The notes beneath the pieces are model-generated. The model ran no database searches and had not been told where the DNA came from. It saw only the letters and a list, made by a program, of their open reading frames with translations. A stretch of DNA of 60,384 bases, filler included. It is 5 parts of 5 records of this genome, joined end to end, with 100 filler letters (N's around TTAATTAATTAA, not from the genome) between each part and the next. Parts side by side here need not be neighbours in the genome. Positions count along the whole stretch, not along the records: positions 12,118 to 24,519 come from DRR378314_730; 4 more parts are not named here. The stretch is one strand, 5' to 3'. The translations under genes and the position numbers were made by a program. Below, piece by piece: positions 3,592-54,405 of the stretch. Position 1 is the stretch's first letter, and each line of letters opens with the position of its first letter.

Positions 3592-3615
3592 CGCCCCGAT
3601 TATAGGAGAAACACC

Positions 3616-4779
3616 ATGGCTGTTCTGCCCATCATAGACGCCAGCACGGAAGAGTTGACGGAGATCTTCAAGGATCTGCATGCCCATCCTGAAATCGGGT
3701 TCACCGAAACCCGCACCGCTGGCATCGTTGCGGATAAGCTGCGCGAATACGGTGTCGACGAGGTGCATGTGGGCATTGGCCAGACCGGTGTTGTCGGGAT
3801 CATCAAAGGCAAGCGCGCAGGGCCGCGTCGGATCGGGGTCCGTGCGGATATGGACGCGCTGCCGATTAGCGAGGAGACCAACCTTGCCTACGCCTCGACC
3901 AATCCCGGTGTGATGCATGCCTGTGGTCACGACAGCCATACAACCATGCTGTTGGGCGCGGCGAAACATCTGGCGGCAACCCGTGATTTTGCGGGGACAG
4001 CCGTGATGATTTTCCAACCCGCGGAAGAGGGGCTTGGCGGCGCGCGTGACATGATCAGGGACGGATTGTTTGACCGGTTCCCCTGTGACGAGGTTTACGG
4101 CATGCACAACTCTCCGAACGGCACACCGGGGTCTGTGGGAATCTGCAAAGGGGCGGCGATGGCAGGCGCATCTTTTTTCGACATTACGGTGCAGGGCAAG
4201 GGCAGCCACGCGGCCATGCCGCATCAATCACGCGACCCGCTGGTGATCGCGTCTAACCTGGTGGGCAGCCTGCAAACCATCCTGTCACGCAATGTGGCCC
4301 CGCTGGACACCTGTGTCTTGTCCGTCACGCAGCTGCACGCCGGTGCCGCCTATAACGTGGTGCCAGATACGGCGACCCTTGCGGGTACGATCCGCTATTT
4401 CAAGGATGAAGTCTGCGCCCTTGCCGAAACCCGCATGCGCGAACTTTGTGCGGGTTTCGCAGTGGCTTATGGCGTCACGATCAACATCGATGTGCGCAAT
4501 GTCTTTGACGTGCTGATGAACGACAGCGAACTGTCGGATGCCTATATGGAGGCTGCCGCTGACATCGTGGGGCGCGAGAACATCAGCGACACGGATCAGC
4601 CTGCGACCGGTTCGGAAGATTTCGCGGATATGCTCAAGGTCATTCCCGGTGCCTATTGCCGGATCGGTCATTCCGGCACCACAGGGCTGCACAACCCCAG
4701 CTTCTTCCTTGATCCCGAGGTGCTGCCCGTCGGCGCCTCGATCATGGCGCGGATTGTGGAACGGCGGTTGGTGGCGTAA
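3616..4779 (+). CDS. M20D family amidohydrolase (hippurate hydrolase-like)
   Basis: HAHPEIGF, RADMDALP, MHACGHDSH, FQPAEEG, GSHAAMPH and SEDF motifs. Confidence 0.93.
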   Translation: MAVLPIIDASTEELTEIFKDLHAHPEIGFTETRTAGIVADKLREYGVDEVHVGIGQTGVVGIIKGKRAGPRRIGVRADMDALPISEETNLAYASTNPGVMHACGHDSHTTMLLGAAKHLAATRDFAGTAVMIFQPAEEGLGGARDMIRDGLFDRFPCDEVYGMHNSPNGTPGSVGICKGAAMAGASFFDITVQGKGSHAAMPHQSRDPLVIASNLVGSLQTILSRNVAPLDTCVLSVTQLHAGAAYNVVPDTATLAGTIRYFKDEVCALAETRMRELCAGFAVAYGVTINIDVRNVFDVLMNDSELSDAYMEAAADIVGRENISDTDQPATGSEDFADMLKVIPGAYCRIGHSGTTGLHNPSFFLDPEVLPVGASIMARIVERRLVA

Positions 4780-12017: not shown

Positions 12018-12117
12018 NNNNNNNNNNNNNNNNNNNNNNNNNNNNNNNNNNNNNNNNNNNNTTAATTAATTAANNNNNNNNNNNNNNNNNNNNNNNNNNN
12101 NNNNNNNNNNNNNNNNN
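12018..12117. other. Artificial contig linker (N-run + TTAATTAATTAA six-frame stop + N-run)
   Basis: The same 100-nt structure occurs four times; composition changes across it. Confidence 0.98.
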
Positions 12118-12121
12118 GCCT

Positions 12122-12144
12122 TTCGCTTGCAGGCAAGCTCCCAC
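12122..12144 (-). repeat. REP-like palindrome (GTGG-GAGCTTGCCTGCAAGCGAA)
   Basis: GTGG tetranucleotide followed by GCTTGC-CT-GCAAGC hairpin, at a contig end and downstream of a gene. Confidence 0.55.
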
Positions 12145-12171
12145 AAATCCGGCTTCGTAGCGGAGTCTGTT

Positions 12172-12344
12172 CTAATAGTCGCGCAGGTTATCCAGCATCC
12201 GACTCCCGATCTCGATAAAAGTATTCTGGTCTGTCTTAGTAATGCCTTTGAGAAGCGTCTTTTTCACTTCATCTTCCGCTTCCTTGATACGCGCCATAAG
12301 ACCCTGACCCTTATCGTTGAGCGACAGAAGCTGGGCGCGGCGAC
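12172..12344 (-). pseudogene. MarR-family regulator, 3' remnant
   Basis: Minus frame reads RRAQLLSLNDKGQGLMARIKEAEDEVKKTLLKGITKTDQNTFIEIGSRMLDNLRDY*; in-frame TGA just upstream and no start codon. Confidence 0.7.
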
Positions 12345-13030
12345 CTCAGCGACTTCCCGAAGAACCACGAAAGCGCCAACTTCAAACCGCTGATTCCCCG
12401 CCCGGGGCAAACGGAGATCCCGCTGCCGCCGTTCGGCGACGCGCCTCCGGAAGAACGACCCATAGTACGTACCTACACCCTGCGCCACTTCGACCACCAA
12501 CGCGGCGAAGTGGCGGTGGATTTTATGATGCACGCCGACCACGGCCCCGCCTCCGGCTGGGCCGCCGCCGCCCGTCCCGGTGACCGGATCGGCTTCGCCG
12601 GGCCCGGCGCCCCCAAGTTCGCGGACTTCGACGCGGACTGGTTCCTGTTCGCCGGCGACATGTCCGCGCTGCCCGCCATCGGCGCCAACGTCGAACGCCT
12701 GCCCGCCAACGCCCGCGGCTACGCGGTGCTGGATATCCTCGACGACGCGGACCGGCAGGCCCTGCCGTTCCCGCCCGGCATGGAAGTGATCTGGCGGGTG
12801 AACCCCAACCCGGAACAGCCCGCCATGGGCTGGGTGGATACCATCGTCGGGCTACCCTGGCTGGACGGCTCGCCGTCGGTCTGGGTGGCCGGCGAAAGCG
12901 GCGCGGTGCGCGCCGTGCGGCGCTACCTCACCCAGGAACGCCAGATCGAACGTCGCCGCCTCTACGCCAGCGGCTACTGGCAGATCGGCCTCACCGAGGA
13001 CCGCCACCAGCTCGAAAAGCGCAAGGATAA
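12342..13030 (+). pseudogene. Siderophore-interacting protein (ViuB/YqjH family), 5'-truncated and lacking its normal stop
   Basis: RTYTLR, HGPASGWA, AGDMSALPAI, WVAGES, ASGYW motifs; frame open only from 12321 with no N-terminus; reads through antisense into ychJ. End coordinate approximate. Confidence 0.8.
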
Positions 13031-13046
13031 AAGGATAAAGAGGCGC

Positions 13047-13492
<446 letters not shown>

Positions 13493-13496
<4 letters not shown>

Positions 13497-14113
13497 TTGG
13501 GGCGGTACATCTGAAAGAACGTATCCGGGCTGATGCCGAAGTAGTCGGCCGGGCCGCCGCCGCGCAGGATCGGCTCGGCGTCGGCGGTCTGGTAGACGCC
13601 GTCCTTGAGCAGATGCCGGGCGATGTGCACGCCCACCACCTCGCCGAACACCATCCAGGTATCGGTCTCGGTGCCGTCGGCGCCGGTGAGCCGCAGAATC
13701 TGGCTGAGCCGGCATTCGAACGACACCGGCGTCTCCTTCACCCGGGGCACGCCGATCACCCGCGACGGCTCCGGCGTCAGCCCGGCCAGCTGGAACTCGT
13801 CCACCTCCGGGCCCACCCCCGCGCAGCTCTGGTTCATCGCCTCCGCCAGCGGGCGGGTAGCCAGGTTCCAGCCGAACTCCCCGGTCTCCTCGATGTTTCG
13901 CACGCTGTCCTTGTAGCCGACGCTGGCGAAGCCCACCAGCGGCGGCTTGTAGTTAAAGGCGTTGAAGAAACTGTAGGGCGCCAGGTTCAGCACCCCATCG
14001 CGGCTGCGCGAGGAAATCCAGCCGATCGGCCGGGGTGCCACCAAAGCGTTGAAAGGATCATGGGCCAGCCCATGGCCAGCGGAGGGTTGGTAGAAATGAA
14101 TGTCGTCACTCAT
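13493..14113 (-). CDS. Flavin reductase family protein (DIM6/NTAB)
   Basis: [44 protein letters not shown]. Confidence 0.9.
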
Positions 14114-14174
14114 CCGCCAATGCTACGCGCGGCGGACTCCAAACGACAAGCGCGGGCCAGGCCCGCGCTTGCAG

Positions 14175-14202
14175 CTATCAACTGTCAATTATCAACTATC
14201 AA
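14175..14202. repeat. Intergenic heptamer tandem repeat (CTATCAA x4, imperfect)
   Basis: ctatcaa ctgtcaa ttatcaa ctatcaa immediately after the alkB stop. Confidence 0.75.
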
Positions 14203-14203
14203 C

Positions 14204-15406
14204 TCAAGCCGCCACTTTGGCCGGCGCGTCGCCGTACTCGATACCGTACTTCCGAATCAGCTTCTCGCGCTTGGCCGGGTCGAAGTTGATGTTGCGGGCG
14301 TCGTTGCCGGCGTGCTCCAGCAGACGCTTGTCCATCACCTTGTACCAGATCGGCGGGAAGTAGCTGATAAAGAACATACCGAAGTAGCCGTTGGGCAGCT
14401 CGGGCAGGTTCTCGAAGTGGCGCAGGCTCTGGTAGCGACGGGTGGGGTGCGCATGGTGGTCGGAATGGCGCTGCAGGTGGAAAGTGGCCCAGTTCGAGAA
14501 CATATGGTTGCTGTTCCAGCTGTGGTGCGGCTGGGTGCGCTCGTAGCGGCCGTTGGCCTTCTTGTGGCGCAGCAGGCCGTAGTGCTCGATGTAGTTGGCG
14601 GAGGTCAGCTGGAAGGCGCCCCAGAAGGCGGTGCCCAGAATGTAGGGCAGCAGGCCGATGCCAAAGATAGCGAGCACGGTGCCCCAGGCGACGAGGGTGA
14701 TGATCGCCGGCTGGATGATCTCGTTCTCCAGGGACCAGACCGATTTGCCCTGGGCGTTCAGGCGGTCCTTCTCCAGGCGCCAGGCGCGCTTGGCGGCGCC
14801 GGGCAGCTCGCGCAGCGCGAACTTCCAGATGCTCTCGCCCATGCGCGAGGAGGCCGGATCTTCCGGGGTGGCCACGTCTTTGTGGTGGCCCTTGTTGTGC
14901 TCGATAAAGAAGTGGCCGTAGGCGCACGGCGCCAGCACGAACTTGGCCAGCCAGCGCTCGCCCTTGCCCTTCTTGTGGCCCAGCTCATGGCCCAGGTTGA
15001 TGCCCACGCCGCAGGTGCTGCCGATCAGGTAAATCATCGCCAGCACGCCGTGCCAGGGCAGGCTCTGGGTGCCCACGAACCAGGCGCCATAGAACCAGGC
15101 GCCCCAGATCAGCGGCACCAGGGCGTACAGAATCCAGCGGTAGTAGGGGTCGTTTTCCAGCTGCGGCACCACCTCTTCCGGCGGGTTGCTGGTGTCCTCG
15201 CCGATCAGCATGTCCAGCACCGGCACGGTCAGGTAGTAGAACGCCAGCGGCAGCCACAACATCAGCGCGTTGTTGCCGGTGGCGAAATAGAGCGCCGGGC
15301 CCACGAACACGATGGCCGGCACGAACAGCGACGAAAACCACAGATGCCGTTTGCGGTCGCGGTAGATCACACCGGACGGCCCGGTGAATACACCTGCCTT
15401 GCTCAT
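14204..15406 (-). CDS. alkB: Alkane 1-monooxygenase (membrane di-iron hydroxylase)
   Basis: HELGH, EHNKGHH, NYIEHYG and LQRHSDHHAHP histidine boxes; GAGGTGAG RBS before ATG 15406. Confidence 0.97.
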   Translation of the reverse strand: MSKAGVFTGPSGVIYRDRKRHLWFSSLFVPAIVFVGPALYFATGNNALMLWLPLAFYYLTVPVLDMLIGEDTSNPPEEVVPQLENDPYYRWILYALVPLIWGAWFYGAWFVGTQSLPWHGVLAMIYLIGSTCGVGINLGHELGHKKGKGERWLAKFVLAPCAYGHFFIEHNKGHHKDVATPEDPASSRMGESIWKFALRELPGAAKRAWRLEKDRLNAQGKSVWSLENEIIQPAIITLVAWGTVLAIFGIGLLPYILGTAFWGAFQLTSANYIEHYGLLRHKKANGRYERTQPHHSWNSNHMFSNWATFHLQRHSDHHAHPTRRYQSLRHFENLPELPNGYFGMFFISYFPPIWYKVMDKRLLEHAGNDARNINFDPAKREKLIRKYGIEYGDAPAKVAA

Positions 15407-15554
15407 AAACCTCACCTCTTTGTTATGTAATGGTTCCATCCTCCGCCTGTCCGGGGTCCACCGGCACCGCTTAGAGTGGCAATAAATCGTCATAAAGTGA
15501 CAAGGCGGCCGACATTCACTACCTTGGAGGGAAGGCTTCCAGGGAGCGGCACCC

Positions 15555-16577
15555 ATGACCGTGCAGATCACAAACCGGCTGCGCCCCGCGATTCACCCCA
15601 CCTATCCGCGTCTTTTGTGCGCGTATTTGCACGAGCGGGGCTTCGATAACGCGGTGATATTCCAGGACACCCGCCTGCAATGGGAGCAATTGCTGGGCGA
15701 CCACCGCTATTTGAGCCTGGAGCAGATGTCGCGCCTGATCCGCCGCGCCATCGACCTCACCGGCCAGCCCTGGATCGGCCTGGAGACCGCCGGCGTCACC
15801 TCGGTGTCCGCCCACGGGCCGCTGGGCTACGCGGTGGTGTCCGCGCCGGACCTGCGCGAAGTGCTGCGGGTGGTGTCCCGCTACGTGGGGGTAAGGTTCC
15901 AACTGGTGGGGGTGCGCTTCGAGGAATTCGACGACCACGCCGTGCTGACGCTGGACGAGCAGGTGGACCTGGCCGAGATCCGCGAGTTCGTCACCGGCTC
16001 GATCCTGGCCACCTACTTCCAACTGGTGGACACGGTGACCTCGCGGCGGCTGCGCGACGTGGCCGTCACCCTGCCGCTGGACGAGCCCGCCTGGGCGTCG
16101 GTGTACGAAGAGTATCTGGGCTGCCCGGTGACCTTCGGCACCGGCCAGCTCACCATCACGCTGCCCGCCGCGCTGCTCGACACCCCCTGCCTGACCGCCG
16201 ACCCCACCACGCACCGCGCGGCGTTGCGGGATTGTGAGCACCAACTACGGCAGATTCAGAGTGGCGGCCCGCTCAGCCAGCGCATCGGCGTGATGCTGCT
16301 CGACCGCGACGGCGACTACCCGACCCTGGACGACACCGCCGAGGAATTCGCCATGTCCCGCCGCACCCTGATCCGCAAGCTCAAAGCCGAAGGCACCAGC
16401 TTCCAGGAACTGCTCGACGACGTGCGCCGCGAACTGGCCGCCTGGTACCTGCTGGAAACCAGCCTGCCGGTGGAGCGCATCGCCGAAAAGCTCGGCTACC
16501 AGGACCCCTCCAACTTCAGCCGCACCTTCCAGCGCTGGTTCGGCACCACGCCGCTGCGCATGCGCCGCGCGCCCTGA
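15555..16577 (+). CDS. AraC family transcriptional regulator, divergent from alkB
   Basis: HGPLGYA ligand-domain motif; C-terminal MSRRTLIRKL and IAEKLGYQDPSNFSRTFQRWFGTTP HTH motifs. Confidence 0.93.
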   Translation: MTVQITNRLRPAIHPTYPRLLCAYLHERGFDNAVIFQDTRLQWEQLLGDHRYLSLEQMSRLIRRAIDLTGQPWIGLETAGVTSVSAHGPLGYAVVSAPDLREVLRVVSRYVGVRFQLVGVRFEEFDDHAVLTLDEQVDLAEIREFVTGSILATYFQLVDTVTSRRLRDVAVTLPLDEPAWASVYEEYLGCPVTFGTGQLTITLPAALLDTPCLTADPTTHRAALRDCEHQLRQIQSGGPLSQRIGVMLLDRDGDYPTLDDTAEEFAMSRRTLIRKLKAEGTSFQELLDDVRRELAAWYLLETSLPVERIAEKLGYQDPSNFSRTFQRWFGTTPLRMRRAP

Positions 16578-16578
16578 G

Positions 16579-17145
16579 CTACGGCGTCAGCGCCAGCAAC
16601 CGCCGCTCCAGCCCGAACACATGCTCGTCCTCGGCGCCCAGCTCGCGCAGTGCCTCCGCCAGATGCAGCAGATAATCCCGGTTGGCACCGCTGGGCCCGT
16701 GGCTGCCATGAATATGCCGCGCGATCTCGTCCTCCGGCGCCGGCCCCAAAAAGGCCGCGTTATCCTCGGTGGCGATATAAACCAGCCCCTCTTCATGGCC
16801 GCCGTCGGCGAACGTCATCGGCGTGGCGAACCGCAAATAGCCGTTCTTCTCGCGCACATCCAGATGCTCGAACACCGACGGCGCCACCCGGTACGCCATG
16901 CCCGCGCACACCGTGCCCGGGCTTTCCACCAGCGTCAGCACCCGGCCCGGCCGCTCCGGCGTGCCGCGATGATCGTGGGAGCCCTGCCAGAAACGCCGCG
17001 CCCAGCCCTCGATGCTGGCGGGCCGGCGCTCCAGAAACGGAAAGTCCGCCTTGAAGATCAGCGAGCCGTAGCCGAACAGCCAGACGCTGTCGCGGCCATT
17101 GAAGTCATGGCGGGTCTTATTAAGTTCGGAAGTGTCGAGAGTCAT
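16579..17145 (-). CDS. chaC: Gamma-glutamylcyclotransferase, ChaC family
   Basis: WLFGYGSLI, RRFWQGSHDHRGTPERPGRV, GPSGANRDY. Start set to MTLDT (17145). Confidence 0.9.
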   Translation of the reverse strand: MTLDTSELNKTRHDFNGRDSVWLFGYGSLIFKADFPFLERRPASIEGWARRFWQGSHDHRGTPERPGRVLTLVESPGTVCAGMAYRVAPSVFEHLDVREKNGYLRFATPMTFADGGHEEGLVYIATEDNAAFLGPAPEDEIARHIHGSHGPSGANRDYLLHLAEALRELGAEDEHVFGLERRLLALTP

Positions 17146-17154
17146 AACGGAAGG

Positions 17155-17182
17155 AAGATACAGGATGCAGGATACAGGATGA
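17155..17182. repeat. Intergenic heptamer tandem repeat (AGGATAC x4, imperfect)
   Basis: aagatac aggatgc aggatac aggatga upstream of chaC. Confidence 0.7.
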
Positions 17183-17285
17183 AGCGCGGCCAACGCCGTC
17201 CAGCTGCCACCCTTGACTGCATCTTTTATGCGTAACGGATAACATCTATGCGTTATGCATAACTCGGAATTGCCAAGGACACCCC

Positions 17286-17915
17286 ATGAAAGACGTACGC
17301 CAGGAATACCACGCCCCCGGCCTCACCGAAGCGGACCTGCTGGCGGACCCGGTGGAACAAGCCCGCCGCTGGGTCGACGACGCCATCAACGCCGAGCTGC
17401 CCCTGGCCAACGCCATGACCCTGGCCACCGTCTCCGCCGACGGCCGCCCCTCCAGCCGCGTGGTGCTGCTTAAAGGCATCGAAGACGGCGGCTTCGTCTT
17501 CTTCACCCACTACGACAGCCGCAAAGGCGACGACATCGCCGCCAACCCCAACGTCTCCTTCGTCATGTTCTGGGGCCCCTTCGACCGCCAACTGATCGTC
17601 AACGGCCGCGCCGAGAAAATCCCCGCCCAACAATCCCGCGACTACTTCGCCTCCCGACCCCGCGGCAGCCAGCTCAGCGCCGCCGTCTCCCATCAGAGCC
17701 GGCCCGCCAGCCGGGAGCAGTTGGAAGCGGATATGGCCAAGCTGGCTGAGCAGTATCCGGAAGGTGAGACCATTCCCATGCCGGAGACCTGGGGTGGTTA
17801 TCGCATCGTTCCCGAGGAGATTCAGTTCTGGCATGGGCGGCCTAGCCGGCTGCATGACCGGTTCCGCTATATCAGGGATGGCGACGAATGGGAGCGGGAG
17901 CGCCTGGCTCCCTGA
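17286..17915 (+). CDS. pdxH: Pyridoxine/pyridoxamine 5'-phosphate oxidase
   Basis: NAMTLAT, RVVLLK, YF.SRPRGSQ, WGGYRI, FWHGRPSRLHDR, RLAP. Confidence 0.96.
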   Translation: MKDVRQEYHAPGLTEADLLADPVEQARRWVDDAINAELPLANAMTLATVSADGRPSSRVVLLKGIEDGGFVFFTHYDSRKGDDIAANPNVSFVMFWGPFDRQLIVNGRAEKIPAQQSRDYFASRPRGSQLSAAVSHQSRPASREQLEADMAKLAEQYPEGETIPMPETWGGYRIVPEEIQFWHGRPSRLHDRFRYIRDGDEWERERLAP

Positions 17916-17927
17916 GGCGATTTAGAT

Positions 17928-18170
17928 TTATTGGCCTGGTCCCAAGAAACAGGCCCCTGCCGTCCACCCCCTATTCAAGGCGAGCCAGCTTAAAAATACC
18001 GAAACCTTTCGCTCCGACAGCTCAGCCGGGGGGCGCAACTTATGAAACCTAATGAAATAGCGAATCCAGTACCAGTAGGTCTTCTCGGTCCATGGGCTGT
18101 AATGGCGCATTCGAATGGCATCGCGGAACTGATCACGGAGTCTTAGGCGCCTGTCACTATCCGTGTACAT
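17928..18170 (-). pseudogene. intI: Integron integrase remnant (N-terminal SAM-like domain only)
   Basis: LRDQFRDAIRMRHYSPWTEKTYWYWIRYFIRFHKLRPPAELSERKVSVFLSWLA matches IntI N-termini; similarity ends after LALNRG (~17970) and the tyrosine-recombinase domain is absent; divergent from a cassette array. Confidence 0.9.
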
Positions 18171-18186
18171 GGCTACTCTCTTGTTG

Positions 18187-18202
18187 CTGTCCATATGAAC
18201 AG
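18187..18202. promoter_or_regulatory. LexA (SOS) box upstream of intI
   Basis: CTGT-CCATATGA-ACAG is an exact CTGT-N8-ACAG match, 16 nt upstream of the intI ATG at 18170. Confidence 0.85.
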
Positions 18203-18356
18203 CCTCATGGCAATTGGGAAATAAAGAAGTGAAGCGAACGGGGACACACCACGCGGCAGGTTTGTAACTTATTGAGTTTTCTGGTTTTATTTGAAGATAC
18301 CAAAAACTATAACGTGATACGACGCTGGCGCATTCATTGGATATTCGAGCCGGCGT

Positions 18357-18373
18357 CCTAATACCTGTTAAAC
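18357..18373 (+). mobile_element. attI recombination site core
   Basis: CCTAATACCT-GTTAAAC resembles the attI1 simple site; GTTRRRY lies 3 nt before the first cassette ATG and pairs with TTTAAC at that cassette's end. Confidence 0.75.
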
Positions 18374-18376
18374 GCC

Positions 18377-19039
18377 ATGACGATCTACCAACAATTCGAA
18401 AACAGCATTGCAGCAGCCGATCAGCTGGTCGATATGTATACCGAACTCCGCCGCAGTAGAGGGCTGGGTACCAGAGGTCGCCTTGATGCGGCCAACACTG
18501 ACCTTCTTTGGCTACCGCGGTCTGCCGTAGTTGCTTCGCTCTCCGCTATGGATTCCTATATCCACTCAGTACTGTACGACCGCATTCCGGAGGTTATCCG
18601 AGAGGGCAATGTTCCAGATCCGTTGGCGGAAGCGCTTTCATCAATAGTCCCGATAAAGAATGGCCAGAGTTTCAGGGCGGCGCTTCCGATATTGCAGCAG
18701 GCGGATACCGTAGACGCGTTGTGTGGTCGCCTCCGAGAGAAGACATTGTCATTTCTCTCATATCAAGCGCCTGAGAAAATAATAAAAGGCTATGAGATGA
18801 TTGGGCATCCAAATATATTTGATACTGTCGCAGCGACATGGCCTGGGCCACGAACCGCAGCCGACGATCTCCGTCGGACCCTCGCGAATTATGTTAAGCG
18901 ACGGAACCAAATTGCACACGAAGGCGATCTCGAAGCAAGCGGAGATCCTCGTCCGATGCAGCCAAAATATGCAACTGACTGTAGGTACTTTATTGAGAAT
19001 CTAGTTTATCGCTTAGACCAAGCGATATATGGCCTTTAA
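18377..19039 (+). CDS. Cassette 1: HEPN domain protein (RiboL-PSP-HEPN-like putative RNase)
   Basis: RNQIAH (Rx4H) followed by EGD; N-terminal RSAVVASLSAMDSYIH helix. Confidence 0.8.
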   Translation: MTIYQQFENSIAAADQLVDMYTELRRSRGLGTRGRLDAANTDLLWLPRSAVVASLSAMDSYIHSVLYDRIPEVIREGNVPDPLAEALSSIVPIKNGQSFRAALPILQQADTVDALCGRLREKTLSFLSYQAPEKIIKGYEMIGHPNIFDTVAATWPGPRTAADDLRRTLANYVKRRNQIAHEGDLEASGDPRPMQPKYATDCRYFIENLVYRLDQAIYGL

Positions 19040-19060
19040 CAAAGCCTTCCAGCTAGCACT
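19034..19060 (+). mobile_element. Collapsed attC1 remnant
   Basis: CTTTAAC-AAAGC-CTTCCA joined directly to GCTAGCACT, one mismatch from GTTAGCACT, the complement of cassette 2's AGTGCTAAC. Confidence 0.7.
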
Positions 19061-19083
19061 CGATTAAGTTCGGAGATCATGAG

Positions 19084-19914
19084 TTGAGAAAACCACGGCT
19101 ATTTATCGCGTCCTCAGTTGAAAGCCTTCCTATCGCTGAGGCTGTGAATGTTAATCTGGATCTCGATTTTGAAGTGACTATTTGGAAAAATGGTACATTC
19201 AAACTCTCATCATCAACGATCGAAGATCTGGTAGAGAAATCATCAGCTGTGGATTTTGCGCTGTTCATTTTTGCACCCGACGATATTACTACAATCAGGA
19301 ACAGAAATGAGCATGTAGTCAGGGACAATGTGATATTCGAAATGGGACTGTTTGTTGGTGCAATTGGAAAGTCTAGATCCTTCGTTCTAAAGCCACGCGA
19401 TGTTGATATGCATTTGCCGACAGATTTGTTAGGTGTAATGCCGGCGGACTTCGATGCAAACCGCTCCGATGGCGATCTTGTTTCGGCGACAAATAGAGCA
19501 TGCTCTTTGATTAAATCAGAGGTAGAGAGGCTTGGGCTTATAAACCATGCAAGTCTTTCTGAATCTAAAACCATCATAGCCAACCCCGCGAGCTATGAGC
19601 TAAAAGAGCAGGACTACAAGTTTCTAGCTGCTTGTCTGCAAAGTCATGTTGCGGATCCAGTCGGCTTGCCTTTCCATAGAATAGCAAATAGCTTTTGTGG
19701 GGTTAACGAAGCTATTTTGCAAATATCGCTCATTAAACTGGAGCGTATGGGGTTAATAAGCAAATCTGTAGAGACAGATCACCAGGATGATTATGATTTT
19801 TATGCATACTCAATCACAGAGTTGGGTGTAGATGAGTTGCTGAAGAATGAGGAATACCTACAGCCAAAAGCGTCTAAGGCGACGGATGGTTTTGATGATG
19901 ATATCCCGTTCTAG
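19084..19914 (+). CDS. Cassette 2: TIR domain protein (CAP12/Pycsar-type TIR) with winged-helix-like C-terminal domain and SSB-Ct-like tail
   Basis: RLFIASSVE, DFALFIFAPDD, RDNVIFEMGLFVG, LPTDLLG; LIKLERMGLI...YSITELG; ends GFDDDIPF; TTG start after GGAG. Confidence 0.85.
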   Translation: MRKPRLFIASSVESLPIAEAVNVNLDLDFEVTIWKNGTFKLSSSTIEDLVEKSSAVDFALFIFAPDDITTIRNRNEHVVRDNVIFEMGLFVGAIGKSRSFVLKPRDVDMHLPTDLLGVMPADFDANRSDGDLVSATNRACSLIKSEVERLGLINHASLSESKTIIANPASYELKEQDYKFLAACLQSHVADPVGLPFHRIANSFCGVNEAILQISLIKLERMGLISKSVETDHQDDYDFYAYSITELGVDELLKNEEYLQPKASKATDGFDDDIPF

Positions 19915-19986
19915 TGCTAACAAAGCGCTCTTGCCGGACAAGTTTTCCGCTGCGCTTCAAACTTTCCGCAAAGCGCGGCGTTACAC
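19915..19986 (+). mobile_element. attC site 2 (72 bp)
   Basis: TGCTAAC...GTTACAC with imperfect internal palindrome (gcgctcttgc/gcaaagcgc). Confidence 0.88.
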
Positions 19987-19996
19987 GGCCTAAACG

Positions 19997-20785
19997 ATGA
20001 AGCGATGTATATTCTGTAATCTGGACTGCAGTGGGTCGAGGCGAGCGAAGGAGCACATCATTCCTGACCACCTTCAGCGGAGGTATGGGCTGCCGAAAGA
20101 AAGGCTTTCGAATGCTCACTCCAAGATAGTAAGCGGTGATTTTGCGGGCGGCCATATATCTAAACTTCCAGCTGAGCGTGAACTGACTTATTCAGGGTTT
20201 CTTGCCGGTCGAGTTTGCAAAACCTGTAATAATGGGTGGATGTCGGAATTAGAAAAAGGGGTTATACCTCTTGTTTATCAGCTTATCGACGGGGAGGTGG
20301 GCCTTGATAAAATAAAACAGAAAGAACGGGAGAGTCTAGCTCGCTGGAGTTTTAAAACCACCGCTGCATTGAGTGGTTCTACAAATGCTCCTCAAAACTT
20401 TGTTTCTGAATCTCATTCTAAAGAGTTTTACTCTAGCGGCGGTGTAAGCATTCCAGAAAATGTGGGAATCTTCGCTGCTACCTCCGATGAAGCCGACTTT
20501 CTCTGGAGCTTTAGCCCAACTTGGCAGGTCAGAACGGACAGTGACATACCGAAAGAGCTACTTCAATTTATGCAGAGAAAATCCTACAAGGTGTTTCTTC
20601 AATTAGGGCACTTGATGTTGGCGGTATGCTGGTGGCCGTCTAACACCATCACATACACTTTAGAGTCGTGGGCTGGAACCGAATTGTCGGGTTTGAAAAA
20701 CTTAGATACTAATAACGAAGATTGCAGGGAATATTTTGACAAAGAAAATGAGGCGTTCCTAATGGCAATTGGAGCGAAGGTATGA
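19997..20785 (+). CDS. Cassette 3: HNH endonuclease-like protein (HNH_5-type N-terminus)
   Basis: CIFC...KEHIIP...VCKTCNNGWMSELE pattern. Confidence 0.75.
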   Translation: MKRCIFCNLDCSGSRRAKEHIIPDHLQRRYGLPKERLSNAHSKIVSGDFAGGHISKLPAERELTYSGFLAGRVCKTCNNGWMSELEKGVIPLVYQLIDGEVGLDKIKQKERESLARWSFKTTAALSGSTNAPQNFVSESHSKEFYSSGGVSIPENVGIFAATSDEADFLWSFSPTWQVRTDSDIPKELLQFMQRKSYKVFLQLGHLMLAVCWWPSNTITYTLESWAGTELSGLKNLDTNNEDCREYFDKENEAFLMAIGAKV

Positions 20786-20792
20786 AATTGGC

Positions 20793-20876
20793 GTGTAACA
20801 AGCGCAGGCACAGAGACGGCTTTTCCATTGCGGCTTCGCCTCCATTACAAAGCCGCGCGTGCTGCGGGCGTTATAA
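20793..20876 (+). mobile_element. attC site 3 (84 bp)
   Basis: GTGTAAC (complement of upstream GTTACAC)...GTTATAA; cgcaggcac/gtgctgcg and cggcttt/aaagccg stems. Confidence 0.9.
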
Positions 20877-20891
20877 CTCAAGGAGAGATCG

Positions 20892-21320
20892 TTGTATTTT
20901 CTAGAATCTCAAGAATTTTGGCTTTCTATTGCCGTGATAATTGGCGGTGCGGGAGCAATTTGGGCTGCCTATAAATTTGGAAAATCTCTATCTGAAAGGG
21001 AATTGAGCCATTGGTTTCATGAATATTGGGTTTATTGGTTCGATAAAAATTCCAATCAGTATGACCGAAAGCTGGCTCTACAAGAATTTTCTGAAGCCTA
21101 TCGAGGCTATTTGAGAGAGCGGAATGATTTCTGGGAGAAATACGGCCAAGTCACCGTTTCCGTAGCCATCATTGTTGTATTGGCCGTCCTTCTTTTGACA
21201 AAGACAATTAGTCCCGAAGCGGGGTTGCCAATTTTAAGTGCTGTAGGTGGTTTTGCCATTGCTAAAACAGCGAACGTTTCAAACCAAAACCGCCCCGGTC
21301 CCGGTGGCCCACAAGGCTAG
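20892..21320 (+). CDS. Cassette 4: small membrane protein (2-3 TM)
   Basis: AGGAG RBS with TTG start; hydrophobic segments; fills the cassette. Confidence 0.75.
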   Translation: MYFLESQEFWLSIAVIIGGAGAIWAAYKFGKSLSERELSHWFHEYWVYWFDKNSNQYDRKLALQEFSEAYRGYLRERNDFWEKYGQVTVSVAIIVVLAVLLLTKTISPEAGLPILSAVGGFAIAKTANVSNQNRPGPGGPQG

Positions 21321-21322
21321 AG

Positions 21323-21377
21323 TTATAACAAGTAAAATCAGTGGACGCTAAACGCGCCGCTGCTTTAAGCGTTGGGA
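21323..21377 (+). mobile_element. attC site 4 (55 bp)
   Basis: GAGTTATAAC is the 10-nt reverse complement of GTTATAACTC at the cassette start; ends GTTGGGA. Confidence 0.85.
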
Positions 21378-21389
21378 ATGAGGTGGCGC

Positions 21390-21887
21390 ATGCAAGACAT
21401 TATTCAGCAGGTTAGGGCTGTGAACGGAGCAGATTTATACTACGTATCTCTGTTCTCCGCTCTTGCACTTCCAGATATCTGCGCTGCATTAGAAGCCGCT
21501 GATGGGCAAGCGTCAAAGGCGAAATACGTAGCTTGGTTTGATACACATGTGGCGTCGCGCTACAACGGTTTCCTTGACGGCGAAACCTCTTATTACTTCC
21601 GATGTTCAATGCTGCATCAAGGCTCTACACGGCACCCTCGGGGTCGCTATTCGCGCGTTATATTCGTAGAACCCGGCCACTCTGGAATGGTCTTGCACAA
21701 TAACGTCATAAATGACGCGCTGAACATCGATGTTCGTATCTTCTGCGAAGACCTTTGCCAAGCTGCGGAGCAATGGTGGCAAGGTGCAGCTTCGGAGGCT
21801 AATGTCCAGACAAATCTTGCGCGCTTCGTGACGCGCCACCCAACTGGTCTCGCACCATACATTGGCGGCGTCCCGGTTATTGGCTGA
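21390..21887 (+). CDS. Cassette 5: hypothetical protein with HEPN-like Rx4H motif
   Basis: GAGG RBS before ATG 21390; ALALPDIC helix and YFRCSMLHQG. Confidence 0.65.
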   Translation: MQDIIQQVRAVNGADLYYVSLFSALALPDICAALEAADGQASKAKYVAWFDTHVASRYNGFLDGETSYYFRCSMLHQGSTRHPRGRYSRVIFVEPGHSGMVLHNNVINDALNIDVRIFCEDLCQAAEQWWQGAASEANVQTNLARFVTRHPTGLAPYIGGVPVIG

Positions 21888-21892
21888 CGTAT

Positions 21893-21973
21893 GCCCAACA
21901 AGCGCGTGGAGCCGGACTCGCTACGTCGGCGCTTTGCGCTGCCTCCGCTCGCCGCTCACGCGGAGCGTTAGGC
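21893..21973 (+). mobile_element. attC site 5 (81 bp)
   Basis: GCCCAAC...GTTAGGC; cgcgtggagc/gctcacgcg stem with extrahelical base. Confidence 0.9.
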
Positions 21974-21990
21974 GTAAAAGAGGAAGCATC

Positions 21991-22554
21991 ATGAAGAAAC
22001 TTACACTGGCAATATTCATTGCACTGTTCACAATCTCGATTGCTCATGCGGGCGCGACCTCGCCCGGAGATTATTACGTCACAGCAAATAAGCTGAATGT
22101 CCGTTTGGCACCGAATAAATCAGGAAAAGTCACAGACACTGTATACAAACGGCAAAAGATTGAAGTCCTCGAAGTCAAAGATGGCTGGGCGAGAATTTCC
22201 CGTTATTACGACGGAGGGGTCGAAGGGTTGTCGGGAGATGTCGCCCGTTGGGTATTCGCTAAGTATCTCTCCACCAACCGCCCTGCTGAACAAAAAGTGG
22301 CAGATCTAAACTCTCCTGTAGCAAGAGCAATAAAATCATCGGATGACTTTTCAAAATATCAAAGCGTCTTTGTATCGGCATCAGAGCAGCTAATCAGGTC
22401 AGGCACATGTACACTCGAAGATTTCAAAGAAATGGGGGGATGGTGGAGGTCAACTAATCATAAACCAAAGCCAGTATATTTTACGTATTGCGGAGGTATA
22501 ACAAAAAGCAATCGCGTCTATCTCAATGCTGCGACCGGCAAGGCATTCAGGTAA
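21991..22554 (+). CDS. Cassette 6: secreted SH3b domain protein
   Basis: Signal peptide MKKLTLAIFIALFTISIAHA; LNVRLAP...EVLEVKDGWARI...WVFAKYL SH3_3 pattern. Confidence 0.85.
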   Translation: MKKLTLAIFIALFTISIAHAGATSPGDYYVTANKLNVRLAPNKSGKVTDTVYKRQKIEVLEVKDGWARISRYYDGGVEGLSGDVARWVFAKYLSTNRPAEQKVADLNSPVARAIKSSDDFSKYQSVFVSASEQLIRSGTCTLEDFKEMGGWWRSTNHKPKPVYFTYCGGITKSNRVYLNAATGKAFR

Positions 22555-22555
22555 A

Positions 22556-22581
22556 GCCTAACAATGGACTTCAAGGGACGC
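22556..22581 (+). mobile_element. attC left half, interrupted by IS
   Basis: GCCTAAC (complement of upstream GTTAGGC)-AATGG-ACTTCAAG, then the IS end. Confidence 0.8.
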
Positions 22582-22632
22582 TGTAGTTTCCCCGCTTTAG
22601 TGGACACCTTCTCCTAATGAGAGGAGGTGGCA

Positions 22633-22839
22633 ATGCCCAGATATAAGTATCCGAGGAAGACCTGGCAGTACTCGGCGGATTTCAAGGTGAAGGCTGTCGA
22701 GCTGAGTCATCAAGAAGGGATTGAGGTCCGGCAGGTCGCTGCAGGTCTGGATATCCATCTGTTTATGCTTTCACGGTGGCGTAAGGAATACCGCGAAGGC
22801 AGAATCAGGCCAGATGGTCGTAAACGTGTGGAAGGCTGA
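22633..22839 (+). pseudogene. IS3-family OrfA (HTH), truncated
   Basis: YSADFKVKAV...VAAGLDI..MLSRWRKEY; lacks the coiled-coil C-terminus. Confidence 0.8.
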
Positions 22840-23438
22840 TGCGTGAAGCCTCGCTGATCGCGCGTGCTGGCAGGGTATACCGCCGAATCCCAGGCATTGA
22901 GCGTTTTTATGAGCGCCACAGGAACATACGGTTGAATCAGCCGGCACCTACGGGGCTGCACCAGCAATGGGTCGCGGATCTCACCTATATCCGGGTTGGA
23001 AATGAGTGGCGATACCTGGCGGCTGTACTCGATGTGTATTCGCGAAAGGTAATTGGCTGGTCTTTGGGTAGCAGGAAGACAGCGAACCTGACTCTGCGAG
23101 CGTTACGTCACGCATTGCGAGTGAGGACGCCCAGGCCGGGCTTGATCTTCCACACGGACCGAGGCGTCGAATACGGGGCGCACCTGATCCAGAATGAGCT
23201 GGGCAGGCACGGAATTCAGCCCAGCATGAATCGGCCCAACCAGTGTACGGACAATGCGCATATGGAGTCCTTTTTCCATAGCATGACGGCAGAAGTGATC
23301 CATGGCGTCTCGTTCAAAAGCGAGAAGGAGCTAAGAGTGGTTCTGAGCGGCTACATCAACCAGTTCTATAATCAGAAACGGTTGCACTCTGGTATTGGGT
23401 ATAGGGCCCCGGCAGAATACGAGAGAATGGTAGCGTGA
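22839..23438 (+). pseudogene. IS3-family OrfB DDE transposase, N-terminally truncated
   Basis: WVADLTYI, LDVYSRKVIGW, HTDRGVEY, DNAHMESFF, YNQKRLHSGIGYRAP. Confidence 0.88.
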
Positions 23439-23472
23439 AACGAAGCGTGTCCATTTTATCGGGGGAAGATCA

Positions 23473-23521
23473 CCGGTACTACGCTGCACTCCGTGCCGGC
23501 AGCTTACCCACGGCGTTATGT
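23473..23521 (+). mobile_element. attC right half
   Basis: ccgg...ccgg stem, then GCTTACC-CACGGC-GTTATGT. Confidence 0.78.
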
Positions 23522-23533
23522 GTAGGGGGCACG

Positions 23534-23877
23534 ATGAAAATATCAGGCAGACGATACTATTGGCTCGTTCTAGCCGGATTGTTGCTAGGATTGATTTCAG
23601 GAATATTCGGTGCCCGCTACGAGGAGGCCATAAACTCCGATTTAGGCCTGATGTTCGGAATGCTCGTCATAATGGTTGTGTCGGGCATTTGCTATTACAC
23701 GGTGGCGTGGGAAATGTGGGCTAGATGGGGGGTAAAATTTATAGCCGTTCTACTAGTCCTGGGCGTGCTTGCAAGAATGCTTCACCCTATTTTTTTTTTT
23801 TTGTCATTCTCTTTCTGACTCCCGTTCTTTACTGGGCGGGGCGAATCAATGGCGTTCACGATAGAGAAACCACATAG
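23534..23877 (+). pseudogene. Cassette 7: membrane protein, frameshifted at a T13 tract
   Basis: ORF 23534-23818 as written; the alternative frame after the poly-T continues VILFLTPVLYWAGRINGVHDRETT* to a stop inside R''. Confidence 0.6.
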
Positions 23878-23960
23878 CCAGACGGTCAGCCGGAGGTCAA
23901 GAGTGTGCCGCGTTTGGTTCCCTTCGCTGCGCTCCGGTGCCGGTTACCTCAGCGTTAGGT
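23872..23960 (+). mobile_element. Degenerate attC site 7 (89 bp)
   Basis: ACATAGC where ACATAAC is expected from GTTATGT; ggtcagccgg/ccggttacc stem; ends GTTAGGT. Confidence 0.72.
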
Positions 23961-23999
23961 GGCAAGGCCTCGAAACTCTCCGAGGCCCGCCTTTCAGCC

Positions 24000-24199
24000 T
24001 CAGCGGCTACAATCTCGAACAATCGACAGCCGCCCATCCTCAACCTAATCGATACTGGTGTGTCGATGGAAAAGCCGGCTTGTTCCAGCCAGAGACCTTC
24101 CAAAAGAATGAACGGCGCCACGCGATTTCCGCTAGAAGGGGTGCGTTTGGGGATATAGTCCCAGTGGCCTTAACGGACTTTGAGGGTGCGGTTGTTCAT
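24000..24199 (-). pseudogene. symE: SymE-family type I toxin pseudogene
   Basis: AGGAG RBS; MNNRTLKVR*GHWDY...PFILLEGLWLEQAGF; a 1-nt frameshift restores EDGRLSIVRDCSR*. Confidence 0.8.
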
Positions 24200-24243
24200 G
24201 GTTAAGCTCCTGTTGTGCAATTTCTAGGTTGCGTAAGTAGGGC

Positions 24244-24325
24244 GGTCGGGAGGCTAGAAACAGCAACAGGTACTGCTCCGACTATTTCCTGCAAGCAGGT
24301 GTGCTATTCGCCGGACCTCTCGACC
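24244..24325 (-). ncRNA. Candidate C4/CI-like cloverleaf antisense RNA in the symE leader
   Basis: Closing stem ggtcgggagg/cctctcgacc, internal hairpins, and two 7-mers complementary to sites at the symE RBS. Strand inferred. Confidence 0.5.
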
Positions 24326-24404
24326 ATTACATTCCCGGATTTCGGGTACAAAAAAACCGCAATGCTTCCGGAGTGCGGCTTCGCCCGCCCCCGGCTAGCC
24401 TCTA

Positions 24405-24518
<114 letters not shown>

Positions 24519-24519
24519 A

Positions 24520-24619
24520 NNNNNNNNNNNNNNNNNNNNNNNNNNNNNNNNNNNNNNNNNNNNTTAATTAATTAANNNNNNNNNNNNNNNNNNNNNNNNN
24601 NNNNNNNNNNNNNNNNNNN
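24520..24619. other. Artificial contig linker
   Basis: N-run + TTAATTAATTAA + N-run. Confidence 0.98.
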
Positions 24620-37646: not shown

Positions 37647-37746
37647 NNNNNNNNNNNNNNNNNNNNNNNNNNNNNNNNNNNNNNNNNNNNTTAATTAATT
37701 AANNNNNNNNNNNNNNNNNNNNNNNNNNNNNNNNNNNNNNNNNNNN
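37647..37746. other. Artificial contig linker
   Basis: N-run + TTAATTAATTAA + N-run. Confidence 0.98.
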
Positions 37747-54305: not shown

Positions 54306-54405
54306 NNNNNNNNNNNNNNNNNNNNNNNNNNNNNNNNNNNNNNNNNNNNTTAATTAATTAANNNNNNNNNNNNNNNNNNNNNNNNNNNNNNNNNNNNNNN
54401 NNNNN
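54306..54405. other. Artificial contig linker
   Basis: N-run + TTAATTAATTAA + N-run. Confidence 0.98.

Follow-up and report, generated by a model that had tools for sequence, protein, structure and literature searches.

A cassette-borne TIR–winged-helix protein whose C-terminal tail resembles that of the resident single-stranded DNA-binding protein

The stretch of DNA analyzed in this study (60,384 nucleotides, referred to below as the window) contains, on its plus strand at positions 19084–19914, a gene for a protein that combines an N-terminal TIR domain, an acidic winged helix, and a disordered C-terminal tail. The last seven residues of this tail, FDDDIPF, are identical to those of Escherichia coli SSB, the protein that binds single-stranded DNA (…MDFDDDIPF). 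The tail tracks the SSB of the genome in which the gene resides, as predicted for a mimic. Judged by its sequence, the gene is an integron cassette with an attC site directly downstream; it appears to stand alone, to be mobile, and not to be phage-borne. Thus the architecture noticed in the first-pass annotation is confirmed, and its interpretation as that of a cyclase-independent defense effector is supported; an anti-phage role, NAD+ depletion, and binding of the tail to other proteins are the elements of this interpretation that we infer.

TIR domain enzymes that hydrolyze NAD+ (NADases) and kill infected cells are well known. To our knowledge, the way in which such enzymes sense infection is known for only a few of them. 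In the protein described here, the place of the sensor is held by a mimic of the tail by which SSB, an essential and universal hub, recruits its partners. A TIR effector with an SSB-type tail was not found described in the literature, supplementary tables of cassette-borne defense genes being outside this search. SSB is mentioned nowhere in the two TIR surveys that cite PF10137, and TIR is mentioned nowhere in the available part of a preprint on defense genes of mobile integrons. What is new is the SSB tail as a putative docking or sensing element, whereas the single-protein TIR NADase effector is of a known kind.

Domain architecture, predicted active site, and distribution of the family

The open reading frame (ORF) encodes 276 amino acids, and its start site is the same in the homologues, where the upstream alignment gives TTG, ATG, or GTG as the start codon. 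The four parts proposed initially, namely the TIR domain, the winged helix, the flexible linker, and the FDDDIPF end, are all present. Together with the connector, they follow one another in the order TIR domain, connector, acidic winged helix, variable disordered linker, and tip (pLDDT, predicted local distance difference test; SSB-Ct, SSB C-terminus):

19072–19076, plus strand: Shine-Dalgarno-like GGAGA, 7–8 nucleotides before the start; GGAGA or GGAGG is kept in homologous loci
19084–19914, plus strand: TIR–winged-helix ORF, TTG start, TAG stop at 19912–19914
19084–19542, plus strand: TIR domain of the Cap12/PycTIR class, residues 1–153, assigned with Pfam, PADLOC, PDB, Foldseek, and AlphaFold
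19339–19341, plus strand: codon of Glu86 in the motif RDNVIFE, aligned with the catalytic E84 of SfSTING and invariant in 65 sequences
19543–19593, plus strand: inter-domain linker, residues 154–170, modeled with low confidence (pLDDT 55–64)
19594–19854, plus strand: acidic winged-helix domain, residues 171–257, assigned from AlphaFold models, structural alignment, and charge
19855–19890, plus strand: variable disordered linker, residues 258–269, the least conserved part of the protein, resembling the SSB linker
19891–19911, plus strand: SSB-Ct-like tip FDDDIPF, residues 270–276, assigned from its conservation and its co-variation with resident SSB tails

Various lines of evidence assign the TIR domain to the class suggested at the outset. 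Residues 5–124 match Pfam PF10137 (E 5.9e-34, 117.1 bits against a cut-off of 24.7), and the matches to the CBASS-TIR and PycTIR models of PADLOC are confined to residues 1–153, the latter model being aligned by its TIR part only (profile positions 150–286). Sequence search against the PDB retrieved Cap12 (9lmq, 5.6e-21), PycTIR (8jsj, 9.6e-20), and TIR-STING (7un8, 5.8e-18), with the motif RDNV[IV]FE aligned. In an AlphaFold run with 32 close homologues the TIR domain was unfolded (pLDDT 25–45), and an alignment of 65 sequences gave a TIR model with pLDDT 80.7. Searched with this better model, Foldseek returned a TIR/flavodoxin-like fold with TIR-STING filaments at the top (9lmq, E 4.6e-13; 7un8, E 1.6e-9).

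According to the available part of the SfSTING report, the NAD pocket of that protein is formed by F6, S10, W33, F37, L47, R78, and N80 with the catalytic E84, and by D110 from the opposite TIR domain (PMC9402430). In our alignment the counterparts of these residues are F7, S11, W34, F39, L49, R80, N82, E86, and D114, and each of the nine is either invariant or conserved to 90% or more across the 65 sequences, down to 37% identity. The TIR active site therefore looks complete and competent, with the glutamate of RDNVIFE in the catalytic position, and the protein is a predicted NADase. Since the pocket would be completed in trans, by D114 of a second TIR domain, activity would need TIR–TIR contact, which is the established logic of the family.

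The protein also lacks the usual company of such a domain, as had been noticed from the letters alone: Pfam and PADLOC scans of the six array ORFs revealed no STING, SAVED, or cNMP domain and no cyclase. PADLOC matched only the TIR part, the protein maps in full onto no characterized system, and the NCBIfam Cap12 equivalogs stay far under their cut-offs of 450 (121.9 and 85.1 bits, over residues 3–139 only). Close relatives of the TIR domain (L056–L080; 40–65% identity over residues 1–150) have quite different C-terminal regions, and one alphaproteobacterial group among them, of 240–255 amino acids, often ends in …DYF, …NYF, or …GFY. This suggests that other sensor modules are carried by the same TIR subfamily.

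The second domain had been described as resembling a winged helix-turn-helix (wHTH). Its winged-helix fold is confirmed: residues ~171–257 are modeled with pLDDT ~85–90 in both AlphaFold models, the closest structural match is MarR (5h3r_A, Z 11.0, root-mean-square deviation 2.0 over 78 residues, VIA-align), and numerous MarR, PadR, and HxlR chains match with Z of 9–11. However, a DNA-binding role is unlikely, because the domain is acidic, with a net charge of -9 here and of -3 to -10 in 55 of 55 proteins, and has no basic surface. Its wing is rich in D and E, and the TIR domain is acidic as well (-1 to -9). Thus it is probably not a DNA-binding wHTH. No wHTH family profile reached its cut-off, as there was no Pfam match and the NCBIfam profiles Sta1, Lrs14, and PadR gave E of 0.03–0.1 and 13–15 bits against the 80–102 required; sequence search of the PDB with the winged helix returned no significant match, and the ESM Atlas search with the winged helix plus tail scored 0.78, under the lead level. 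The winged-helix-plus-tail module (residues 155–276) had 46 phmmer matches only among 1.84 billion representatives searched with no length limit, all of them of the same architecture or fragments, and in none of these 46 was another effector fused to the module. Complex prediction for two copies of residues 155–276, made with no alignment and with controls that remained unfolded, scored 0.00 against a mark of 0.32 and is uninformative on dimerization.

A word-index search for relatives of the whole protein gave 644 matches, many of them related in the TIR domain only. The best 120 clusters are 76–100% identical, almost all of 276 amino acids, and those that are named come from many gammaproteobacterial genera. 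Species-representative genomes contain 54 full-length loci, including Bacteroidota and Betaproteobacteria at 38–52% identity. In these loci no flanking ORF family is common to more than four, the shared cases being synteny within one genus, and the neighbors of the gene in the window occur in none of 80 related loci. With no cyclase or other conserved partner near the gene in the 54 loci, its proposed independence of a cyclase is supported. An attC-like site directly follows the gene in at least 15 of the 54 loci, and all 30 matches of the covariance model used for this search (R1) lie on the strand of the gene; the model was built from five similar attC sites and is narrow, so these counts are lower bounds. 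It found no match in any Bacteroidota locus among the 54 scanned. Three full-length copies are carried by plasmids, and 50,697 phage records gave no match.

Conservation of the tail and its relation to the resident SSB

The tip is retained next to a sequence that is not. Over residues 261–270 the mean column identity among 121 close sequences is 0.48, against 0.75–0.99 elsewhere, and linker and tip together, from residue 258 onward, comprise 2–37 residues across loci. Conservation in the same 121 sequences is 82% for F270, 89% for P275, and 98% for F276. Because these residues persist beside a linker of such low identity, the data suggest that the tip is under selection. Of the 120 close clusters, 103 terminate in [ILVM]PF, as do 32 of 46 distant matches of the winged-helix domain and 37 of 54 genomic loci, so the tail is a conserved feature of the family. 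In the six-frame translation of the window, this ORF is the sole frame with such a terminal motif. The tail has pLDDT ~60 in the deeper model built from 65 sequences.

Noncanonical ends are truncated in some proteins and in others read …GQIDF, …FDDMDF, …DIQF, or …WDDW. A smaller clade (L019, L021, and L024) ends in …GQ[IV]DF, and L052 ends in …AIWDDW. The replacement C-termini of tail-less clades could be alternative docking peptides.

For comparison with the host, resident SSB genes were sought with Pfam PF00436 in 52 genomes, two of which had no match. One more locus (L039) was dropped, leaving 49 pairs: it comes from a metagenome-assembled genome (MAG) labeled Peptococcaceae, it has a cassette that hardly differs from one of Alcanivorax, and mis-binning is likely. 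In both L039 (Bacillota) and L012, a MAG labeled Polaribacter (Bacteroidota), the cassettes and attC sites are gammaproteobacterial in type; the L012 bin likewise has an SSB of proteobacterial type, and here too mis-binning is likely.

Among the 49 pairs, 34 TIR proteins end in [ILVM]PF. At position -3 the residue is L in both partners of all nine Bacteroidota pairs (SSB …DDLPF, TIR protein …[DN]DLPF), whereas the 25 proteobacterial pairs all have I on the SSB side and, on the side of the TIR protein, I in 16, V in 8, and M in 1. The Bacteroidota copies form one clade in the maximum-likelihood tree of the core (residues 1–257), and the switch to L is therefore a single event. Farther upstream, identity with the SSB of the own genome extends to 74 of the 200 residues at positions -14 to -7, against 42.7±4.9 with shuffled hosts, and none of 20,000 shuffles reached 74; this test ignores shared ancestry, and its outcome is driven by a handful of pairs. 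The strongest similarity, with five to eight of the eight upstream positions matching, is seen in L054, L030, L020, L060, and L022. These five loci, as well as L025, are located on separate branches of the same tree. Four of the pairs are as follows:

L054, Aliivibrio: SSB tail YNEPPMDFDDDIPF; TIR protein tail YNEPPMDFDDEIPF
L060, Oxalobacteraceae: SSB tail PAPNFSDMDDDIPF; TIR protein tail PAPNFADMDDDIPF
L020, Marinobacter: SSB tail MPEPVDDFDDDIPF; TIR protein tail RPEPVDDFDDDIPF
L030, Cellvibrionaceae: SSB tail QPAGFDSFDDDIPF; TIR protein tail QPVGFDSFDDDIPF

In several genomes the 12–14 terminal residues of the TIR protein are nearly equal to those of the resident SSB, and in L060 the encoded residue agrees with that of the resident ssb gene at 23 of the last 40 codons. 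The matching stretches of DNA differ at synonymous sites; therefore any copying from ssb was not recent, and recent gene conversion, considered as a source of the similarity, is unsupported by the DNA-level comparison. The tails may descend from an old capture of the 3' end of ssb or may have converged on it, two histories that look alike at the DNA level. The reading of the tail as a mimic of the SSB C-terminus agrees with its identity to E. coli SSB over the last seven residues, with its conservation, and with its co-variation with the resident SSB.

Possible mechanism, alternatives, and related systems

We tentatively favor the reading that the protein is a stand-alone TIR NADase of the abortive-infection type which docks, via its SSB-tail mimic, on a multivalent SSB-Ct client. 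The enzyme would be silent as a monomer and become active when copies pack together and a second TIR domain supplies D114. Its sensor slot would consist of the acidic winged helix, the short disordered linker, and the copy of the C-terminal tip of the resident SSB, a flexible peptide with which the protein would dock on partners that have an SSB-Ct-binding pocket. The tip is expected to engage proteins that hold the SSB tail because it is conserved, terminal, and follows the host SSB; it could bind either the host's own SSB-interacting proteins or phage proteins that are adapted to the SSB of the host. The trigger would be a multivalent client that is produced or put together during replication of a phage or of other incoming DNA; foremost among the candidates are phage annealases, recombination mediators, and replication proteins which hijack the SSB tail of the host. 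By binding several copies of the protein simultaneously, this client would let the winged-helix cores pack and the TIR domains assemble; NAD+ would be hydrolyzed, and phage would no longer be supported by the infected cell. Of these steps, we infer that the tip binds SSB-Ct clients, that clustering activates the enzyme, and that its function is directed against phages.

Several published observations, taken here from the available parts of the respective texts, are in agreement with this scheme. The TIR NADase SpbK is switched on by the dodecameric phage portal, which clusters its TIR domains (PMC12847820). In Swarozyc, the HTH/winged (helix-turn-helix) auxiliary domain of a TIR-like NADase binds the phage portal, with flexible modules and with cores that pack side by side. 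The Red-beta protein of phage lambda binds the SSB-Ct peptide with Kd ~11 uM (PMC6393309), and DRT10 is controlled by a phage SSB-like protein ending in FDDDIPF together with the host exonuclease SbcB.

A number of observations weigh against this reading. In 17 of 54 genomic copies (~30%) the tip is decayed or replaced, and in a well-supported clade from five genera (L044–L048, found in Photobacterium, Aeromonas, Oceanimonas, Vibrio harveyi, and Enterovibrio) it has given way to a conserved …KKRQAGWGAPQQPPVRS (…QQPPVRS); given such replaced and lost tips, the protein may function without one. Many close homologues have less acidic tips that are unlike the host SSB (FKNDVPF, FDRDLPF, GYNKNIPF), and a large subclade ends in F-x-S-D-V-P-F or F-K-N-D-V-P-F where the host SSB ends in FDDDIPF. 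In the excluded L039 the tail is DDDIPF, and the three SSB candidates of its bin end in …VPF or have no such end. The shuffling test has the limits given above, and in 13 of the 25 proteobacterial pairs at most two of the eight upstream positions match SSB. Finally, the extended identity with SSB (e.g., YNEPPMDF) may reflect capture of the ssb 3' end and not selection for binding; no SSB client is known to contact the residues in these extended matches.

The main alternative, which we consider rather unlikely, assigns the sensing of infection to the winged helix, with a portal or another phage oligomer as its target, and leaves to the tip the role of a tether or safety catch that parks the enzyme on SSB-Ct clients or the SSB hub, where it would be kept apart and inactive or held near replicating DNA. 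The portal-binding HTH/winged domain of Swarozyc, as described in the part of that text available, provides a precedent, and the winged helix of our protein is acidic and highly conserved, like a protein-binding module. The tail-less clade in five genera and the ~30% of decayed tips fit an accessory tip, and binding to phage proteins explains the tracking of SSB no better than binding to host clients does. However, there is no sequence kinship with DUF4062 or Swarozyc (Pfam gives only PF10137, and the PDB no sequence match), no partner of the winged helix is known, and the tip is conserved beyond what is expected of a dispensable tether. The tail might instead be an autoinhibitor acting in cis on the TIR domain or the winged helix, where it would stay until displaced, much as the acidic tails of SSB, T4 gp32, and T7 gp2.5 bend back onto the DNA-binding surfaces of their own proteins; its likeness to SSB would be a by-product of copying from the ssb gene. 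The layout of a linker followed by an acidic tip is indeed that of SSB, the extended identity with resident SSB linkers (23 of 40 codons in L060) suggests descent from ssb, and the tail of the deeper model has pLDDT ~60 and not ~30. Both candidate targets, though, are themselves acidic (winged helix -3 to -10, TIR domain -1 to -9) and offer no obvious basic surface, and autoinhibition predicts neither the switch from I to L with the host phylum nor the exact terminal [IL]PF, which makes it improbable.

A non-immune function also has a low probability in our judgment. The protein could act as a modulator or toxin, competing with SSB for clients during the single-stranded DNA (ssDNA) transactions of integrons, conjugation, or transformation, or an addiction toxin that stabilizes the array, and the integron and plasmid context would suit such roles; but no conserved antitoxin or partner gene accompanies it, its nearest TIR relatives are all phage-defense effectors, and the full NAD pocket is conserved. 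Very improbable is an orphan CBASS or Pycsar effector whose cyclase is encoded elsewhere in the genome and whose winged helix is an unrecognized nucleotide sensor. The class of the TIR domain would favor it, and a distant cyclase is conceivable since the contig with the gene spans only ~12.4 kb; against it, no cyclase is found near the gene at 54 loci in numerous genera, the cassette by which the gene moves holds this gene alone, its C-terminal domain is a MarR/PadR-like winged helix and not a STING, SAVED, or cNMP-binding domain, and the scores of the NCBIfam Cap12 equivalogs (122 and 85 bits) are far from the cut-offs of 450.

The tail may be either a bait or a tether. If it is a bait, it would represent a new sensing principle for bacterial immunity, in which recombinases, replication factors, and other phage proteins that bind SSB tails form a broad class of triggers. 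In the case of a tether, it would show how immune effectors are wired into the hub of replication and repair.

Tips of this kind are not restricted to the TIR family. In locus L017, the cassette just upstream of the TIR gene (2528–3925 of that locus, plus strand) encodes a 465-amino-acid protein ending in …EDDDDFPF, which matches the PADLOC model PD-T7-3 (E 6.6e-34) and the solved HEPN protein "Dandelion" (PDB 9wxf). Among the best 120 relatives of this protein (P0168–P0287), 70 have an acidic [ILVMF]P[FWY] tip, for example …DDDDIPF, …DDDEIPF, or …VEDIPF. In the available part of the DARNA preprint, PD-T7-3 is described as DARNA, a HEPN tRNase that is activated when ssDNA is presented by the SSB of a phage but not by that of the host, and no such tip is mentioned there for the E. 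coli protein. Like the protein in the window, DARNA is a single-gene defense effector tied to the axis of SSB and ssDNA, with tipped relatives in marine cassettes; in contrast, its effector is an unrelated HEPN RNase and its sensor an ssDNA-binding domain. SSB-like tips thus recur on at least two unrelated cassette-borne effectors of defense type, which suggests a reusable module.

It is conceivable, although doubtful, that these tips are a portable adaptor, or "integrated decoy", placed on unrelated effectors such as the TIR NADase and the DARNA-like HEPN RNase. The tip would then be renewed at times by capture of the ssb 3' end after the cassette has entered a new host, and the effector would fire once phage proteins that hijack the SSB hub grab and cluster the fake tail. 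If true, binding of the SSB tail would be a pathogen-associated pattern sensed by means of a mimic, in a bacterial counterpart of plant NLR decoys. In plants, the NLR RRS1 with its WRKY domain exemplifies the integrated decoy, an immune protein in which a copy of a host target serves as bait. The plant decoy NLRs, which often bear TIR domains, share with our protein the bait copy; here, however, the copy is a short linear motif, its function as bait is putative, and there is no NB-ARC or LRR.

Comparison with the nearest characterized systems delimits what is shared. Cap12 (TIR-STING, SfSTING, 7un8, 9lmq) and PycTIR (8jsj) have the same PF10137 domain, the same NAD pocket including the Asp supplied in trans, and the same order of TIR domain first and sensor second, whereas here the acidic winged helix with the SSB-like linker and tip stands in place of the sensor and there is no cyclase gene. 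SpbK of Bacillus subtilis ICEBs1 and Swarozyc (KpSwz) resemble our protein in uniting the NADase and an auxiliary sensor in one polypeptide; the sensor of Swarozyc has an HTH/winged core, and clustering of SpbK and Swarozyc on the portal, as far as the available texts describe it, follows the logic proposed here. Unlike Swarozyc, the TIR domain in the window belongs to PF10137 and not to DUF4062 (PF13271), PF10137 being the only match at E up to 0.1, and no sequence relation of the protein to SpbK or Swarozyc was detected. In the available parts of the texts an SSB-like tip is not mentioned for SpbK, and the word SSB does not occur for Swarozyc. With SSB itself the protein shares, in addition to the tip, a disordered linker rich in P, Q, and K; unlike SSB, it has no OB fold (no PF00436) and a much shorter linker, and its tail is attached to an enzyme.

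The cassette array in the window

The window contains four linkers, at 12018–12117, 24520–24619, 37647–37746, and 54306–54405, each of two runs of 44 N around TTAATTAATTAA. It is therefore made of joined contigs, and two genes separated by a linker are not necessarily neighbors. The contig with the TIR gene (12118–24519) carries chromosomal genes, a remnant of an integrase, and then a cassette array on the plus strand, with the following features:

17928–18194, minus strand: remnant of the integron integrase, N-terminal 88 codons, abutting pdxH (Phage_int_SAM_4, E 3.2e-18)
18368–18374, plus strand: GTTAAAC before the first cassette ORF, likely the attI/cassette junction (G|TT)
18377–19039, plus strand: RiboL-PSP-HEPN-like ORF upstream of the TIR gene, 220 amino acids (PF18735, 27.5 bits, just under the cut-off of 28.4)
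19052–19059, plus strand: degenerate 5' cassette border, GCTAGCAC compared with GTTAGCAC elsewhere (R' box of the preceding attC), found by eye
19913–19988, plus strand: attC of the TIR cassette (R1, 94.5 bits, the site itself being a member of the model)
19997–20785, plus strand: cassette ORF of 262 amino acids
20792–20878, plus strand: attC of the cassette with the 262-amino-acid ORF (R1, 43.2 bits, E 2.1e-11)
20892–21320, plus strand: cassette ORF of 142 amino acids
21321–21379: weaker attC candidate (R1, 12.7 bits, E 0.31)
21372–21887, plus strand: cassette ORF of 171 amino acids
21891–21975, plus strand: further attC of the array (R1, 21.2 bits, E 4.4e-4)
22627–23438, plus strand: two IS3-type transposase-like ORFs, with an orfA-like HTH and a DDE integrase-like part, assigned by visual inspection of the translations

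Since its integrase is truncated, the integron is defective, a frozen array with no integrase of its own. The attC of the TIR cassette consists of R'' GCTAAC at 19916–19921 and R' GTTAC at 19980–19984, with the crossover at G19980|T19981. In blastn comparisons DNA identity with homologous loci starts at 19054 or 19072 and ends at 19983–19984, at the G|TT of the attC. Metagenome depth is raised at 19929–20019, over this site, and at 20792–20878 it reaches 39–370 with many loose ends in two runs. Contigs of metagenomes also diverge at the likely attI junction, where loose ends occur at 18370 and depth is raised at 18291–18381. A hand-written attC scorer had been discarded, as it did no better than its control, with 3 matches among 54 loci and 4 among 270 control positions, and an alignment of eight attC sequences was discarded as too ragged. 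Promoter-like sites in 17900–20100 number 2, against 3.0±1.7 by chance.

The HEPN-like ORF takes the first position after the attI-like junction, and an independent seawater contig spans 18341–20504 with no differences, so that the HEPN-like and TIR genes are contiguous in it as well. The attC model gave no match at the border at 19052–19059. Because the attC that should separate them is degenerate and none was detected, the two genes appear to be welded and may now move or stay as one unit. The HEPN-like ORF was considered as a partner of the TIR gene and rejected, being absent from 80 of 80 related loci. Two contigs of 151 nucleotides, both from a single metatranscriptome sample of a hydrothermal vent, match positions 19293–19576 within the TIR gene with no differences; they hint weakly at natural transcription, with carry-over of DNA being possible.

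The ORFs of 262, 142, and 171 amino acids have no significant Pfam match. The 142-amino-acid ORF has a weak match to the Cas10 model of PADLOC (E 0.0079), the only PADLOC match of the three, and the 262-amino-acid ORF has a weak HNH-like match at its N-terminus (E 0.032). The two IS3-type ORFs lie past the last clear attC and probably interrupt the array.

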